Shown here piece by piece: positions 44,185 to 49,241 of a DNA stretch of 64,000 nt (position 1 is its first letter; the number at the start of each line of letters is the position of its first letter). Origin of the DNA: Kiritimatiellia bacterium (lineage in GTDB: Bacteria > Verrucomicrobiota > Kiritimatiellia > RFP12 > UBA1067); assembly GCA_050949565.1 (NCBI GenBank), contig JBMNFY010000008.1:160001-224000 (forward strand). The letters run 5' to 3'. The notes under the pieces are model-generated. The model was not told the origin of the DNA. It did no database searches and worked only from the letters and a program-made list of their open reading frames with translations. A program made the position numbers and the translations under genes.

Positions 44185-44405
44185 ATTTAGGATTTGGGAT
44201 TTAGGATTTAGGATTTTTTCACTTCGGCGTCCGGCGTTCGGTGTTCAAGTTCTGTGGGCGGCGTTTACGCCGCCGGCCGAGCAGACGCTCGTCCCTCCCG
44301 GTGCTGCGCGAGCCCGGATCACAGGCACTGGAGGGCGAGCGTCCTCGCGAGCCGCCTTCCGCGCGTTGCGCGGAGGGACTAAACTCCTAAATCCTAACTG
44401 CTAAC
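44185..44405. repeat. Composite intergenic element: heptamer arrays flanking REP families A, D and C
   Basis: (TTTAGGA)n at 44185-44215 and complementary (TCCTAAA)-like units at 44378-44405; REPs at 44252, 44278 and 44329. Confidence 0.8.
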
Positions 44406-45354
44406 TCAGCGCTGTTGCGCTGCTGCGCGGCAGCTTGAAGACCAACGAGTCTTCCTCAACTGCCGCCAGCCTTTCGGGTGCCGGAAATCCGTAGCGCTCA
44501 CGCAGCCGCGCCACCGCCGCATCAAGAAACGATTCGGGCGTGGACGCGCCGCTGGTCAACCCGAGTTCATGCACCGCCTCCAGATCAAGCTCATCAATCT
44601 GCTCCAGCGTACTCACCAACTCCGCGACGGCACCAGCCGCACGGGCGGTCTCGACCAGCCGCTGGCTGTTCGAACTATTGGCAGAGCCCAGCACCAGCAC
44701 ACGCGCACAATGGTCCGCCAGCACCTTCACCGCCTGCTGACGGTTGCGCGTGGCATAGCAGACATCCGTCGCGGCCGACTGGAGCAACGCAGGGAAGCGC
44801 CGACGCAGCACCGCCATGACCGCATCCAACTGCTCACCGCCCAATGTGGTCTGTGCCACCACCGCCACAGGCACATCCGGCGGCACCGCCAACGCTTCGG
44901 CCTCGGCCGCGTTCTCGACAACCCGCACCCGCTCCGGTGCCTCACCGGCCACGCCGATCACCTCTTCGTGCCGACGGTGTCCAATGCAGATCACGCAGGC
45001 ACCCTGCGCCGCGAAGCGCCGCACCGCAGCATGCACCTTGGCGACAAACGGGCAAGTCGCATCAATCGTACGCAACTTCCGCGCTGCCGCACGCGCCACC
45101 ACATCGGGTGCCACGCCGTGCGCGGAGAAGAGCAGCCGCGCGCCCACCGGCACCTCGTCGACCGATTTGACGAACCGCATGCCCAAGCCGGACAACCGCC
45201 CAACCACCAGTTGATTATGTACGATCTCGTTGAGACAGTAGATCGTCTCTCCGGGGTAACGCGCAAGCAGCGCCTCAGCCGTCTGCACCGCCCGCGCGAC
45301 GCCAGAGCAGAAGCCGTGCGGCTCAACCACCACCAATCGTTTGCGCGCGCTCAC
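44401..45354 (-). CDS. ispH: 4-hydroxy-3-methylbut-2-enyl diphosphate reductase
   Basis: GFCSGV, IVHN, FSAHG, DATCPFV, HEEV, VCYATRNRQ, SSNS, TSGASTP; GTG 45354 overlaps the upstream stop. Confidence 0.96.
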   Translation of the reverse strand: MSARKRLVVVEPHGFCSGVARAVQTAEALLARYPGETIYCLNEIVHNQLVVGRLSGLGMRFVKSVDEVPVGARLLFSAHGVAPDVVARAAARKLRTIDATCPFVAKVHAAVRRFAAQGACVICIGHRRHEEVIGVAGEAPERVRVVENAAEAEALAVPPDVPVAVVAQTTLGGEQLDAVMAVLRRRFPALLQSAATDVCYATRNRQQAVKVLADHCARVLVLGSANSSNSQRLVETARAAGAVAELVSTLEQIDELDLEAVHELGLTSGASTPESFLDAAVARLRERYGFPAPERLAAVEEDSLVFKLPRSSATALS

Positions 45355-45671
45355 GGTGTCACCTCCCCCTCTCCGTCCGCAGTCCGTTCCAGTTCCGCGA
45401 GGATCCGCTCCGCTGGCGTCAGATACTTCTTCTCGGCGTTGCACGCCTTGCACGCCGGCACGACATTGCCCTTGGTACTGGTGCCGCCACGCGCGACCGG
45501 CACCACATGATCGAGCGTCAGAGCAGCCGCACCAACCTGCCGTCCGCAATAATGGCAAACGCCTTTCTGGATCTGCCGCTGCCACCACTCGCTCTTGCGC
45601 AACGCACGTGCCTTCTCACGCTCGCGCGCCACATGCCGCTCGTCTTTCCGGATATCGATCCACTCGCTCAT
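45351..45671 (-). CDS. Small HNH endonuclease
   Basis: CHYCG, LTLDHVVPVARGG, NVVPACKACN. Confidence 0.92.
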   Translation of the reverse strand: MSEWIDIRKDERHVAREREKARALRKSEWWQRQIQKGVCHYCGRQVGAAALTLDHVVPVARGGTSTKGNVVPACKACNAEKKYLTPAERILAELERTADGEGEVTP

Positions 45672-46420
45672 TTTTTCCTCAGTGCCATCAAGCGCCGCGC
45701 GTGATTCTCCTCGGCCACCGCCAGCGCCGCGAAAGTCTCGCGCAGGCGCGGGATCGTACTCTTCTCGGCAAGCGTCCGGTAGAACTGTGCCATCGCACGC
45801 TCATGCTCGATCGCGTGCTCGACCGCCTTGGACGCTTCGGACGCGTCCTGCATCAGATCCGCCACGGCGGGCAACGCATCGGCCATCTCCTGCGTAATCG
45901 GCAGGTCGCGTTCGGCGCCTGCGGCCAGCGCACCCATCATCGCCTCGTGATGCCAACGCTCTTCCAACGCCAACCGCTCAAAAACCGCCTTTTCCTCTGG
46001 ATCAAGCGAACGCGCCGCCAGCGTCTCGTAGTCTTCAAACGCAGTCTGCTCAAAGATCGCCGCCTGCTGGATCACGAAACTCCCCACCCAATCGGTGATC
46101 GCAGAGATTTCGCGCGTCGGTGCCGCGACCACCTGCCTGCGCGGAAAGAAAGCCTCCCGCAGCATCAGCACGCCGAAAATCAGGAACAGCACACCGCCTG
46201 CGCACTTGATGTAGCGTTCATCAGGCACAAAACGCCGCAACAGGTCGCCCGCCAGCACACCGAACGCCGTCGAGGTAATCAGCGCCAGCGCCCCAGCGGT
46301 GAAAACAGTCCATTTCGCCGACGACGCAGCCGATTGGCTCATCACCGCCAACTGGGTCTTATCGCCCAGCTCCGCCAAGAAAATCAGCATAAAGGTACTT
46401 CCAAACAGCGCCCAATTCAC
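45668..46420 (-). CDS. TMEM165/GDT1 (UPF0016) half-transporter fused to a rubrerythrin/ferritin-like domain
   Basis: FLAELGDKTQL and three TM helices; then E...EERWH and E...EENH diiron pattern; AAGGAG SD before GTG 46420. Confidence 0.88.
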   Translation of the reverse strand: MNWALFGSTFMLIFLAELGDKTQLAVMSQSAASSAKWTVFTAGALALITSTAFGVLAGDLLRRFVPDERYIKCAGGVLFLIFGVLMLREAFFPRRQVVAAPTREISAITDWVGSFVIQQAAIFEQTAFEDYETLAARSLDPEEKAVFERLALEERWHHEAMMGALAAGAERDLPITQEMADALPAVADLMQDASEASKAVEHAIEHERAMAQFYRTLAEKSTIPRLRETFAALAVAEENHARRLMALRKK

Positions 46421-46529
46421 ATCGCTCTCCTTGATTAGATGGAAGTCAGGAGTATACCCTTTGCCGGGCTCCGTTGAAAGTTGAACGTTCACAAAGATGA
46501 ATCATCCGTGTTTCACACGAAGATCGCCG

Positions 46530-46559
46530 TTGTCACGACTGGCCCCTCCTTGGTATGAT
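46530..46559 (+). promoter_or_regulatory. Promoter of the Tad/Flp operon
   Basis: TTGTCA-18 nt-TATGAT with TG extension, 7 nt before ATG 46567. Confidence 0.6.
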
Positions 46560-46566
46560 ACCCGTG

Positions 46567-46746
46567 ATGTTGAAACTGTCGCATAAAAGAAATTCGCGTC
46601 GTAGCCGTTCCGGTCAGGCCATGGTCGAGTACTTGATCGTATTCGTGGTCATGCTCATGGTCGTCACGGTGTTGTCGGTTTTTCTTTATGCAGTGAGGCA
46701 GCAGTCCAACCGAACGCTGGACCTAGTCGCCTCGGAATACCCCTGA
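46567..46746 (+). CDS. Flp/TadE-type prepilin-like protein
   Basis: Basic leader RRSRSG then QAMVEY and a hydrophobic helix. Confidence 0.75.
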   Translation: MLKLSHKRNSRRSRSGQAMVEYLIVFVVMLMVVTVLSVFLYAVRQQSNRTLDLVASEYP

Positions 46747-46784
46747 GCAATGAGGTACGGGGAATGAACAAACGGGAGGAACTC

Positions 46785-47024
46785 ATGAAACGTCGTTTCG
46801 GCCGTCGTAACGGCCAGACCATGGTCGAGTACATCATCATCGTGGTGTTGATCGCTATCACGCTACTGGTTCTGTTCTCGCGTCTCAGCAAAGCCACCGG
46901 CCGCAAGATCGCCGGTGCAACATCCGCATTGGACGCCGATGCCGGATCCGAGGCCGAATCTCTCGCTGAGGACATTGACGAGAACAAAGTCAGGAACCTG
47001 AACTCCGACGGCAGCTTCCAGTAA
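46785..47024 (+). CDS. flp: Flp-type major pilin
   Basis: GGAGGA SD; MKRRFGRRNG then QTMVEYIIIVVLIAI (Flp EY motif). Confidence 0.85.
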   Translation: MKRRFGRRNGQTMVEYIIIVVLIAITLLVLFSRLSKATGRKIAGATSALDADAGSEAESLAEDIDENKVRNLNSDGSFQ

Positions 47025-47106
47025 TACAGAGGTCGGCGTGAACAGACCTTCCAGGCGGACACAGAGTGCCGCCGCGCGGTCCGGTATGCCGGGCAGGCGG
47101 CGGCAA

Positions 47107-47151
47107 TGGAGGGCGAGTGTCCCCACGAGCCGCCTTCCGCTATGCGGAAGG
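47107..47151. repeat. REP-like family C (TGGAGGGCGAGYGTCCYCRCGAGCCGCCTTCCGC...GCGGAAGG)
   Basis: Copies at 44329-44377 and 49830-49874. Confidence 0.85.
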
Positions 47152-47802
47152 ATGGGGTCCAACCGATTACGTTGCGGCCAGGCCATGATTGAATCGGTCT
47201 TCGTGATCATCGTGGCCTGCCTTTGCTTTTTCGCCATCTTCCAATACGCCAACCTGTTCGCGGCCAAAGCCGTCTTGAGCCACGCGGCCGCGCGCGCAGC
47301 ACGTTCCCGGGCGGTGGGATTCAACCAGTGGATGGTTGTGAAAAGCGCCCGCGTGGCGGCCATACCAGCCTCCGGACGACGGCTGACACCGGCATCTGTC
47401 GGCGTCGATCCCGCCGTCAGAGCCGCGCTCCAGAGAAACCGCGTCGGCGACATCTGGGACTTGGCGCTGGAGACCGACGTCCGCTCCCCGGGCACCCAAC
47501 TGGAGGTCGCCCGTGTCCCTGACTACATGGACAGCGATAACGACGCTACCGCTGAGTACCTGCTCAATTATGAACTCTGGGATGCCCTCTCCGTAGACAT
47601 CAGGGAGCCGATGGATGTCGGCGGGATCACCCCCGGCATCCTGACCGTAAACCTGTACCAACGTCACCCCCTGCTCATCGCGCTCGAACCACTGGCCCGC
47701 GGGGAATTGCGCGATGCCGGCGAAGACGATGAGTTGGCGCTCGGAGCGTTCTATTCGATCGAAAGCCATTACCCGCTTTACATGGAGGACATGAACTGGT
47801 GA
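47152..47802 (+). CDS. TadE-like pseudopilin
   Basis: RLRCG then QAMIES and a TM helix, then HAAARAARS. Confidence 0.8.
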   Translation: MGSNRLRCGQAMIESVFVIIVACLCFFAIFQYANLFAAKAVLSHAAARAARSRAVGFNQWMVVKSARVAAIPASGRRLTPASVGVDPAVRAALQRNRVGDIWDLALETDVRSPGTQLEVARVPDYMDSDNDATAEYLLNYELWDALSVDIREPMDVGGITPGILTVNLYQRHPLLIALEPLARGELRDAGEDDELALGAFYSIESHYPLYMEDMNW

Positions 47803-49241
47803 GCCGCGGACACAGATCCGGATTGGCGGTACCGCCCGCTCATTCCGGACAGGTGGCGGTCTTCCTGCTGCTCGCGATGACCGTCCTCGTCTTCATGCTG
47901 CTCTTCATCGTCGACCTGCACAGTATCATCCAGCGCAAGAATCAAACCCAGAACGCCGGTGACGCCGCAGCTCTCGCGGCAGCACGCTGGCAGGGTGCCA
48001 CCCTTAACCTCATGGGTGAGTTGAACCTGTTGCATGTGCTGGCGCTTGTCAACAACCAGACCAACGCCGTCGACGCCATCACCAACATGCAGGCGCGGCT
48101 CAACTTCACCGGTCCGATGACCGCACTCTTCGCAGCCCAGATCGCCGCTAAGAACAACCGCATGTACGTTGACTCCGAAATGACCGACCTCCTGCGTGAA
48201 CATGTCGGCACCATCCGCATGCAGTATGCCTCCGTCTTCGACGGTGAACTCTACTTCCCGGAACCCTGGCCGGGCGCTTGGCCGCAAGTCGCCGACATGC
48301 TCGGTCAAATCGTCGCCGACGGCATCGCGGCCGGCCCCGACAACGCCCAGTTCTTCCTTGATCCCTCCACAGACCACATCCTCACGCAGAAAGCCTTTTA
48401 CGACGCTGTCATGGGCCAAAACTGGTGCTGGTTTTATCTCCACGCCCGCGGCTTGCTGGAGTCCTACTCCTCCTTCCGTGACTGGCCCGCACTGCCCGAA
48501 TTGGGCGTGGCCGATTACTCAGACGCCGAAATCTTTGGCATCGGTCTCTTTCCGATGACGGCCCGTCTGGATGCCTTTTTCTCTGCGTCTGAACTTGAAG
48601 AGCGCTTCCATGAAGCCGGGTTCCACACCGTTTCCGCCGCGCAGCTCGTTGACACCAATGTGATGCAACGCGGCGAGACCTGGTACTTTTACAATCCGAG
48701 CGAATGGTCGGAGTGGACACGCATCAAGCCGGACGGTGAGGACAGCTTCCCGGTGACCGGCACCGTGCGTCCGGAATACGACCGCGCCGGCGCTGACGCA
48801 GTGGTCCGGGTCTACGCCACCGTTGAACGTGAAACCCCCGGCGGCGGAGGCAGGCGCCGTAGTGACAAGGTGGTCTGGACTGCAGCCGCCAAGCCCTTCG
48901 GCTATCTGGAGGACGGCACCGGACGGCGACCGGCGACCGACGCCTCTTACTTCGCACTACCCGCCTTTCGCGATGTCCGCCTGATCCCGGTCGATGCCGC
49001 TTCCGGATCCGAAAACAGCACCTCTGACGTCGAATGGGTGCGCCATGTGCGCAACCATCTCCGCCCCTATCTTGAAACAGGGCCGCAATCCCCGACCTGC
49101 CGCTATTGTCTCGCGCTGGCAACGTGGGAAAACGAGGCATTCCGCCAAGCGGGCATTGACTGGCTCGCGCTCTACCATCAAAACTGCCGCGTGCGTTCTC
49201 CCGGCGGCCGCCGCGGCGGGGGTTCTCGGAGGGGACACTGA
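47799..49241 (+). CDS. TadG-like pilus-associated protein
   Basis: SGQVAVFLL, TM helix, QNAGDAAALAAA (Tad N-terminal motif). Confidence 0.82.
   Translation: MSRGHRSGLAVPPAHSGQVAVFLLLAMTVLVFMLLFIVDLHSIIQRKNQTQNAGDAAALAAARWQGATLNLMGELNLLHVLALVNNQTNAVDAITNMQARLNFTGPMTALFAAQIAAKNNRMYVDSEMTDLLREHVGTIRMQYASVFDGELYFPEPWPGAWPQVADMLGQIVADGIAAGPDNAQFFLDPSTDHILTQKAFYDAVMGQNWCWFYLHARGLLESYSSFRDWPALPELGVADYSDAEIFGIGLFPMTARLDAFFSASELEERFHEAGFHTVSAAQLVDTNVMQRGETWYFYNPSEWSEWTRIKPDGEDSFPVTGTVRPEYDRAGADAVVRVYATVERETPGGGGRRRSDKVVWTAAAKPFGYLEDGTGRRPATDASYFALPAFRDVRLIPVDAASGSENSTSDVEWVRHVRNHLRPYLETGPQSPTCRYCLALATWENEAFRQAGIDWLALYHQNCRVRSPGGRRGGGSRRGH

Follow-up and report, generated by a model that had tools for sequence, protein, structure and literature searches.

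A GDT1/UPF0016 half-transporter fused to an erythrin-type ferritin-like domain, a candidate metal transporter of Kiritimatiellia and other bacteria

The window analysed here, a 64,000-nucleotide (nt) stretch of the Kiritimatiellia bacterium assembly GCA_050949565.1 (contig JBMNFY010000008.1, positions 160,001 to 224,000), carries on its minus strand a gene whose product joins a single repeat of the GDT1/UPF0016 cation transporter family, with three transmembrane (TM) helices, to a C-terminal ferritin-like domain of the erythrin type. The explanation leaned towards here, with moderate confidence, is that this protein works as a homo-oligomeric Mn2+/Fe2+-H+ antiporter, probably as an exporter, whose soluble domain would serve as a di-metal sensor or feeder; within this explanation, the substrate, the direction of flux, the coupling between the two domains and the orientation of the dimer are inferred. 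The interest of the protein lies chiefly in the topology problem raised by a half-transporter that bears a large soluble domain, and in the way erythrin domains have been coupled convergently to metal transporters.

The fusion protein, its conservation and its distribution

The gene extends over 45668..46420 on the minus strand, from a GTG start to a TGA stop at 45668-45670, and codes for 250 amino acids (aa). The stop-free frame itself covers 45668..46492 and gives 274 aa when counted from its first GTG. Since the homologues mostly measure 248-255 aa, covering 91% of this 274-aa query, and align from 'NWALF' onward, the translation start was set at GTG 46418-46420, upon which the coordinates given by an earlier reading of the DNA letters (hereafter the sequence-only reading) are matched exactly. 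A Shine-Dalgarno sequence, AAGGAG (46427..46432, minus strand), lies 6 nt upstream of this GTG, and the same element is found in the closest related locus, L004.

The N-terminal membrane domain (aa 1-91; 46148..46420, minus strand, as are all features of the gene) consists of one GDT1/UPF0016 repeat according to both Pfam and AlphaFold2. More precisely, PF01169 (GDT1) matches once, at aa 32-107 of the 274-aa form (E 2e-19, 70.2 bits against a cut-off of 27), and the AlphaFold2 model, built with a 69-sequence alignment and reaching a mean predicted local distance difference test score (pLDDT) of 76.9, places three long TM helices at 3-30, 36-64 and 68-91. The cation-site motif E17-L-G-D-K-T-Q23 (46352..46372) sits in the first of them. 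The linker of roughly 20 residues that follows (aa 92-113; 46082..46147) is Arg-rich, poorly conserved and modelled as disordered, with a pLDDT below 50 at 95-111. The remainder of the chain (aa 114-250; 45671..46081) is assigned to an erythrin-type ferritin-like four-helix bundle by Pfam, AlphaFold2, Foldseek and a profile search of the PDB: PF02915 (Rubrerythrin) matches aa 142-271 of the 274-aa form (E 8.4e-12, 46.1 bits against a cut-off of 22.8), and the modelled helices span 114-137, 141-166, 199-220 and 224-249, with a long crossover between the second and the third. Both structural claims of the sequence-only reading, namely a single ELGDKTQ repeat with three TM helices and a four-helix bundle with the full ligand set (FE..Y..LALEERWH and HE..FY..LAVAEENH), are borne out by these matches and by the model.

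Conservation was counted over 113 full-length fused proteins, each representing a cluster at 50% identity. In the membrane domain, the UPF0016 consensus E-phi-G-D-[KR]-[ST], as defined in PMC4067407, is matched by E17-L-G-D-K-T22; E17, D20, K21 and Q23 are each kept in 112 of the 113 representatives, G19 and T22 each in 111, and many further TM positions are invariant across the fused alignment. In the soluble domain, the pattern Ex6Y, ExxH, Ex6Y, ExxH, described as the motif set of MbfA-type erythrin domains (PMC7714665), is complete in the window protein. It is formed by E124-x6-Y131 in helix A (46028..46051; E124 in 113/113 and Y131 in 96/113), E154-x2-H157 in helix B (45950..45961; E154 in 101/113, with nine more having D, and H157 in 113/113), E207-x6-Y214 in helix C (45779..45802; 106/113 for each residue) and E237-x2-H240 in helix D (45701..45712, with the codons checked; E237 in 107/113, with six more having D, and H240 in 113/113). 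This joint conservation of the transporter motif and of the ligands argues that both parts of the protein are functional. It bears on the reading of the protein as a membrane-anchored diiron enzyme, a ferroxidase or peroxidase, whose GDT1 half would be a mere anchor without transport activity. Such an enzyme would be in line with the conserved ligands and with the fact that the ferritin-like domain is the best-predicted part of the model (most of its blocks exceed a pLDDT of 90), but an anchor needs neither an E-x-G-D-K-T-Q motif of which each residue is kept in 111-112 of the 113 representatives nor the many invariant TM positions, and this reading is considered very improbable.

By motif, profile and helix count, the window protein is thus a member of the GDT1 family, while its soluble domain belongs, by motif and fold, to the erythrin/rubrerythrin-type ferritin-like family, with a predicted di-metal site. 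Among the PDB sequences, a profile built from 10 sequences of just the ferritin-like domain (A3) found 2fzf (3e-13), 1vjx (9e-10, annotated as 'ferritin-like diiron-carboxylate') and 2oh3 (2e-7, COG1633), followed by EncB, designed diiron bundles, KatB, symerythrin, sulerythrin and rubrerythrins. The three COG1633-type standalone proteins (2fzf, 1vjx and 2oh3) are the closest solved relatives by profile and show a fold Z of 14-15 against the model of P0116, a fused homologue with two TM repeats; unlike the window protein, they are soluble proteins of unknown function without any membrane part. Foldseek used with the whole model returned weak ferritin-like matches (best E 5.9e-3). With the P0116 model, VIA-align found ferritin-like chains at Z of about 15 over 120-137 aligned residues, a result that, helical bundles being able to reach a Z of about 13 through arrangement alone, supports a ferritin-like fold and no specific function. 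In NCBIfam, matches were sub-threshold alone (MbfA, EncB and rubrerythrin) and all fell over the ferritin-like part. A rubrerythrin proper, in which the diiron domain is followed by a rubredoxin-like FeS4 domain, can be discarded: the protein scores 16.1 bits against a cut-off of 200 for RuberyRbr, and its chain ends 10 residues past H240, without Cys-x-x-Cys pairs. The sole other Rubrerythrin-family match of the window's genome (G000:C17:1345377-1345757, minus strand; E 3e-30, in a 201-aa open frame) probably corresponds to a conventional rubrerythrin.

The fusion is by no means restricted to the window, and its recurrence goes far beyond chance. A homology search with 8000 candidates scored returned 426 proteins at E<=1e-3, and among the matches listed, the best 120 of the 426, both Pfam domains are present in 112. 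When the A3 profile was compared with 1.84 billion cluster representatives, 6588 matches were obtained at E<=1e-3, 497 at <=1e-10 and 22 at <=1e-30. Among the best 150 of these 6588, 120 have one GDT1 repeat followed by the domain, one has two repeats and the domain (P0146), one is a split match and 28 show the domain alone, the latter being fragments mixed with genuine standalone proteins of about 150-160 aa. With 120 of 150 sharing the same architecture, this ferritin-like subfamily appears to be essentially the fusion's own and to have co-evolved with the transporter. In species-representative genomes, scanned with one peptide pattern, at least nine full-length fusions were found among 80 loci, and are labelled Lentisphaeraceae, Akkermansia sp., Victivallales (two), Fibrobacterota, Kiritimatiellae/-ia (two) and Planctomycetaceae (two). 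In a 201-genome sample of the window's phylum, 15 genomes have a GDT1 match and four the fusion (G000, which is the window's own, G065, G160 and G163). The ESM Atlas holds a 105-member cluster automatically named for both domains. Judging from record titles, homologue names and an ESM Atlas row, the fusion is widespread and spans metagenome-assembled genomes (MAGs) labelled Kiritimatiellia, Lentisphaerota, Verrucomicrobiota, Planctomycetota and Fibrobacterota.

Concerning its ancestry, a quick IQ-TREE tree of the TM repeats (141 rows over 94 alignment columns, the careful search being unfinished and support limited to the Shimodaira-Hasegawa-like approximate likelihood ratio test, SH-aLRT) places all 59 fused rows within one 73-row clade (SH-aLRT 99), alongside 14 unfused rows. 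These 59 rows are made up of 45 representatives drawn at random from 109, the window protein, the nine fused loci and, for P0116 and P0146 together, four repeats. No fused variant with an extra N-terminal TM helix was seen, the sole N-terminal extension, of 66 residues in P0128, having no hydrophobic segment. The refuting condition set in the sequence-only reading, an artefactual fusion absent from other genomes, is contradicted by the 112 of the 120 listed homologues and the nine species-representative loci that carry it. An assembly or gene-calling artefact joining two neighbouring genes, in favour of which nothing was found, is indeed ruled out by the recurrence of the same continuous open reading frame (ORF) in hundreds of independent records and in nine species-representative genomes, as well as by contigs from separate sequencing runs that span the TM/ferritin junction.

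The sequences as such are already known, since databases name these proteins 'TMEM165/GDT1 family protein' or 'rubrerythrin'. Regarding the literature, the sequence-only reading knew of no characterised example of the fusion, and in the same line the literature searches, supplementary tables aside, found no paper describing it. Where a paper holds both GDT1 and rubrerythrin, GDT1 figures, in the text available, only within lists of Mn-transport genes; papers that name PF01169 do not, by their titles, deal with this fusion; and the accessible part of the 2014 UPF0016 survey (PMC4067407) mentions no additional or ferritin-like domain.

Membrane assembly and topology of the fused halves

The UPF0016 unit is described as two antiparallel 3-TM repeats, and the prokaryotic singletons of the family, which show a weak lysine plus arginine (K+R) bias, have been proposed to form dual-topology homodimers (PMC4067407; review PMC7380456). 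These singleton halves, of about 100 aa, share with the window protein the motif, the single repeat, the three TM helices, the occurrence as a singleton gene and a K+R bias near zero (PMC4067407); they have no soluble domain, whereas the window protein adds about 160 C-terminal residues made up of the linker and the bundle. That a single repeat has to oligomerise was already expected in the sequence-only reading, and this expectation is strengthened by the lack of a second GDT1 repeat in the window's genome (92% complete), where the window gene is the sole match. A divergent partner half was likewise not found by a relaxed hmmsearch of 39,370 six-frame ORFs of this genome, in which the next best match has an E of 0.96. 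In the phylum sample, each of the three other genomes with the fusion has exactly one GDT1 match, and the nine related fused loci show no second half within 6 kb.

The distribution of charges points in the same direction. The K+R bias was calculated as the sum of the N-terminal tail and loop 2 minus that of loop 1 and the first 15 residues of the C-terminal tail. Its mean over the 113 fused representatives is -0.29, and it falls within +-1 in 96 of them; in the unfused singletons of the fetched loci, it is -1 or 0 in 49 of 60. In two-repeat GDT1 proteins, the halves are mostly opposite in sign, and the cyanobacterial GDT1 pairs lean to opposite signs as well, though some of their members score 0. 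The window protein therefore combines the two features expected of a dual-topology protein in the sense of Rapp et al. 2006 (as cited in PMC4067407), a singleton gene and a bias near zero. Dual-topology membrane proteins of the EmrE/SMR-like kind are, however, typically small and not known to have a large extramembrane domain, whereas the window protein carries a folded C-terminal domain of about 140 aa. No precedent is known for a dual-topology protein that carries a large soluble domain.

Further indications come from P0116 (352 aa) and P0146 (343 aa), in which two GDT1 repeats are followed by a single ferritin-like domain. Within each of these proteins, the two repeats are 60-64% identical (58/91 and 56/93 positions, respectively), the first repeats of P0116 and P0146 sharing 51/93, and the two repeats of P0116 are sisters in the TM-repeat tree, which suggests that they stem from internal duplications of recent and possibly independent origin. 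The linker between the repeats of P0116 has 11 residues, is acidic and contains no extra helix, AlphaFold2 predicting six TM helices; with such a short linker, the two repeats have to be antiparallel. A hand count shows a shifted charge in P0116 and P0146, predicting that the N-terminus and the ferritin domain lie inside. The TM part of the P0116 model is predicted with modestly higher confidence than that of the single-repeat model (block means 62-86 vs 54-83), a difference that favours neither assembly. The VIA-wide search with P0116 was dominated by ferritin-like chains, so that its membrane part was barely probed.

Taken together, these data suggest that the fused halves behave like dual-topology singletons, and an antiparallel homodimer is favoured over a parallel one. 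With an antiparallel 3+3 fold, however, the two ferritin domains of 140 residues would face opposite sides of the membrane, save in an unconventional assembly. Nothing in the protein is more unusual than this clash between a 3-TM half that bears a soluble domain at its C-terminus and an antiparallel assembly, a point absent from the sequence-only reading. One tentative answer, held at distinctly lower confidence than the antiporter itself, is that the protein is a true dual-topology half-transporter, inserted in both orientations and forming an antiparallel homodimer whose two identical ferritin domains would lie one in the cytoplasm, the other in the periplasm. Both faces of the membrane would then have a metal site, which could for instance allow metal to be captured on the inner side and oxidised or released on the outer one, and two-repeat forms such as P0116 and P0146, with a cytoplasmic ferritin domain, would be 'fixed' descendants of it.

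The alternatives to dual topology are a fixed orientation with the C-terminus inside (C-in) and a non-canonical parallel assembly, or a partner that escaped detection. In the fixed-topology reading, the ferritin domain would always be cytoplasmic and the 3-TM halves would associate in a parallel dimer or higher oligomer, kept together through dimerisation of the ferritin domains. This arrangement would agree with the fact that large C-terminal soluble domains are not known in dual-topology proteins and that MbfA/VIT1-type proteins are parallel dimers with cytoplasmic domains. In addition, counting 25 instead of 15 tail residues moves the mean K+R towards C-in (2.16 for 15 residues vs 3.08 for 25). 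Nevertheless, the bias stays near zero in those 96 of 113 diverged representatives, just as in unfused singletons, although nothing would have hindered a drift to C-in; P0116 and P0146 have doubled the TM repeat via short linkers while keeping one ferritin domain, which forces an antiparallel 3+3 arrangement; and the family is described as antiparallel (PMC4067407). A fixed topology with parallel halves is hence regarded as unlikely.

A homodimer prediction with two full-length copies (alignment A2, controls not run) scored 0.02 against a mark of 0.42 and returned no interface, which speaks neither for nor against a dimer, parallel or antiparallel; no solved GDT1 relative was found in the PDB sequence search at E<=1, and no TMEM165 structure appeared by title among eight of the 14 papers pairing TMEM165 with cryo-electron microscopy (cryo-EM) structure. 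A 3-TM singleton whose charges are balanced and whose C-terminal domain is large would imply either dual topology or a non-canonical parallel GDT1 assembly, both of which would be novel for the GDT1/LysE-type fold. Should dual topology be true, the protein would provide a test case for the choice of topology when a big C-terminal domain is exported in half of the molecules.

Proposed transport function and comparison with known systems

The mechanism envisaged for the antiporter rests on a minimal dimer, in which the two protomers would supply both E-x-G-D-K-T motifs of the cation site of the six-TM unit, each 3-TM protomer bearing a C-terminal erythrin-type di-metal (diiron or dimanganese) bundle on its flexible linker. 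At the cytoplasmic face, the soluble domain would hold two Fe2+ or Mn2+ ions in its E/ExxH/E/ExxH site, and would either report the metal load or the oxidation state to the transporter or pass metal on to it. The protein would thereby most likely rid an anaerobe's cytoplasm of surplus Mn2+/Fe2+, in an MbfA-like manner.

On the transporter side, TMEM165, Gdt1p, PAM71, Mnx/SynPAM71 and the Hmx1/Hmx2 pair share the repeat and the motif with the window protein, the family function being reported as Mn2+/Ca2+-H+ exchange; these two-repeat transporters and gene pairs are, by contrast, 6-TM chains or two-gene heterodimers with opposite charge bias, and have no ferritin-like domain. The characterised UPF0016 members are described as sharing a Mn2+ transport function (PMC8236900), and yeast Gdt1 as exchanging H+ for Ca2+ and Mn2+ (PMC10148156). 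In phyletic profiles, PF01169 is reported to be negatively coupled with the Mn efflux pump MntP (PF02659; PMC6822775), and neither MntP nor VIT1 was found in the window's genome (92% complete).

On the side of the soluble domain, the closest functional parallel is MbfA of Agrobacterium and Bradyrhizobium, in which a bundle with the same Ex6Y, ExxH, Ex6Y, ExxH motifs is likewise fused to a small divalent-metal transporter. The ferritin-like domain of MbfA is reported to be cytoplasmic, ferroxidase-active and needed for iron transport (PMC7762939), and glutamate mutations in it to impair export (PMC7714665). The two proteins differ in several respects: the membrane part of MbfA is VIT1, whereas that of the window protein is a 3-TM GDT1/UPF0016 half without VIT1 match; the erythrin domain is N-terminal in MbfA and C-terminal in the window protein, the order being reversed; and MbfA is limited to alpha-proteobacteria according to a review, whereas the fusion occurs in bacteria of the Planctomycetota-Verrucomicrobiota-Chlamydiota (PVC) group and in Fibrobacterota. 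The direct match to NCBIfam FeExpMbfA is weak and covers the erythrin part alone (E 0.0019, 17.7 bits against a cut-off of 450). With this score, the lack of VIT1 and the reversed domain order, membership of the MbfA family is ruled out. The sequence-only reading had called the protein analogous but unrelated to MbfA, which holds for the membrane part, unrelated to VIT1, and fails for the ferritin-like domain, homologous to the erythrin domain of MbfA.

If the antiporter reading is true, an erythrin-type di-metal domain would have been coupled to a small metal transporter twice, on the unrelated folds VIT1 and GDT1. Such a coupling on two unrelated folds would suggest that transport relies on the domain in some general way, be it as sensor, gate or metal chaperone. 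It would also add a widespread candidate metal-efflux or metal-sensing system for anaerobic PVC-group bacteria and Fibrobacterota; characterised Fe2+ export systems are called rare in PMC7762939.

Several observations weigh against this reading. Two fused homologues, P0092 and P0103, have lost two of the six ligands (H240 replaced by L, E154 by S or A) and their soluble domains no longer match the Rubrerythrin model, indicating that metal binding is not universal in the fusion family and that the soluble domain may have a metal-independent role in a minority of fused relatives. The antiparallel fold of the family is also hard to reconcile with two ferritin domains that are both cytoplasmic. 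No protein of the GDT1 family is known to carry iron. The genomic context provides no hint of a metal-related function either: no conserved or metal-related partner gene was found in nine fused loci (35 of 63 candidate neighbour ORFs scanned in Pfam), no Rfam family, the Mn riboswitch included, matches at the gathering score in 11 loci, and no Rfam match at E<=1 occurs in window positions 46300-46800. Upstream of the gene, the alignment of three regions reveals the Shine-Dalgarno sequence alone as conserved, with no conserved operator, and window positions 46400-46600 contain no inverted repeats. Finally, some UPF0016 halves import their substrate, Hmx1/2 being reported to enable Mn import.

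This last point, which concerns cyanobacterial halves, also speaks for a redox-gated importer of Mn (or Ca), in which the diiron site would react with O2 or H2O2, in the manner of rubrerythrin, and through its oxidation state open the GDT1 unit for protective Mn2+ uptake by an anaerobe under oxidative stress. The ferritin domain would then sense peroxide or oxygen instead of metal load. Such a function would fit the rubrerythrin/erythrin type of the ligand set as well as the habitat of the host, whose DNA is found in anaerobic digester-type samples and whose RNA-library contigs come from biogas and anaerobic-digester metatranscriptomes. In addition, an unfused GDT1 half is found among oxidative-stress genes in the Clostridia MAG locus L018:1-5300. 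There, a flavoprotein fragment, a small desulfoferrodoxin-like ORF (recognised by eye) and a 160-aa ferritin-like protein with a weak match (6e-8) to the fusion's domain are followed by a rubrerythrin-like ORF with C-terminal CxxC pairs (also by eye), a rubredoxin-reductase-like gene, the 89-aa GDT1 half, and NifS-like and NifU-like genes. This locus is a possible 'split' counterpart of the fusion, tying GDT1 halves to oxidative-stress and Fe-S genes, and keeps the redox-sensing importer alive. It is nevertheless a single locus, and, over the 108 of 115 neighbour ORFs scanned, metal or oxidative-stress neighbours occur in just three of 60 unfused singleton loci. Moreover, no electron-transfer domain such as rubredoxin is fused to the window protein, the NCBIfam rubrerythrin score stays at the 16.1 bits given above against 200, and the negative coupling of PF01169 with MntP favours efflux. 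Altogether, an importer of this kind is considered doubtful.

More generally, the unfused singletons show no recurrent metal theme in their surroundings (60 loci; 108 of 115 neighbour ORFs scanned, seven long ORFs being dropped). Besides NROR and NifS in L018, the metal or redox neighbours of unfused halves are a VIT1-family gene adjoining one such half in L070 (4550-5272) and a TerC-family gene about 1.5 kb from another in L077 (7811-8680). Two further loci labelled Verrucomicrobiota, L024:4030-6336 and L015:4066-6285, show stop-free frames of 740-769 aa that end in a GDT1 half; these long frames are probably not real fusions, their upstream part having no Pfam domain and, in L024, overlapping a strong ThiF gene on the opposite strand.

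Gene surroundings and expression

The fusion gene is followed on the same strand by an HNH-family gene of 106 aa (45351..45671), whose ATG overlaps the TGA of the fusion gene (ATGA), and beyond it by an IspH/LytB gene at 44401-45330. The HNH gene is probably co-transcribed with the fusion gene, a functional link not being indicated. When the window neighbours (HNH, IspH, RpoN and Flp/Tad) were compared across the fused loci, adjacency to HNH was kept in the two closest ones (L004 and L005) and not in seven more distant ones.

The stretch is present in many metagenome runs from biogas fermenters, sludge, bioreactors, landfills and wastewater, which were not counted and are flagged as possible sources, as well as in six RNA-library rows, of which four runs from four studies were compared and gave contigs matching at 100%. 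A 3747-nt RNA-library contig spans the IspH/HNH side into the fusion gene (45200-46016), and contigs bridging the junction between the two domains were found in three of the four runs (45999-46229, 45847-46184 and 45946-46382). Bins 46577-46627 are uncovered in the four runs, and several bins within the gene are uncovered in single runs, gaps to which no meaning is attached. These contigs fit an expressed and unbroken fusion, with a possible carry-over of DNA in the libraries.

On the other side of the fusion gene, a divergent set of Flp/Tad pilus genes occupies window positions 46555-49241 (plus strand), with two small Flp-like ORFs, a TadE-like and a Tad/TadG-like gene. In the four RNA libraries, the contig depth over the first bases of the Flp region (46628-46700) is much higher, at 14-107, compared to about 3-20 for the fusion gene.

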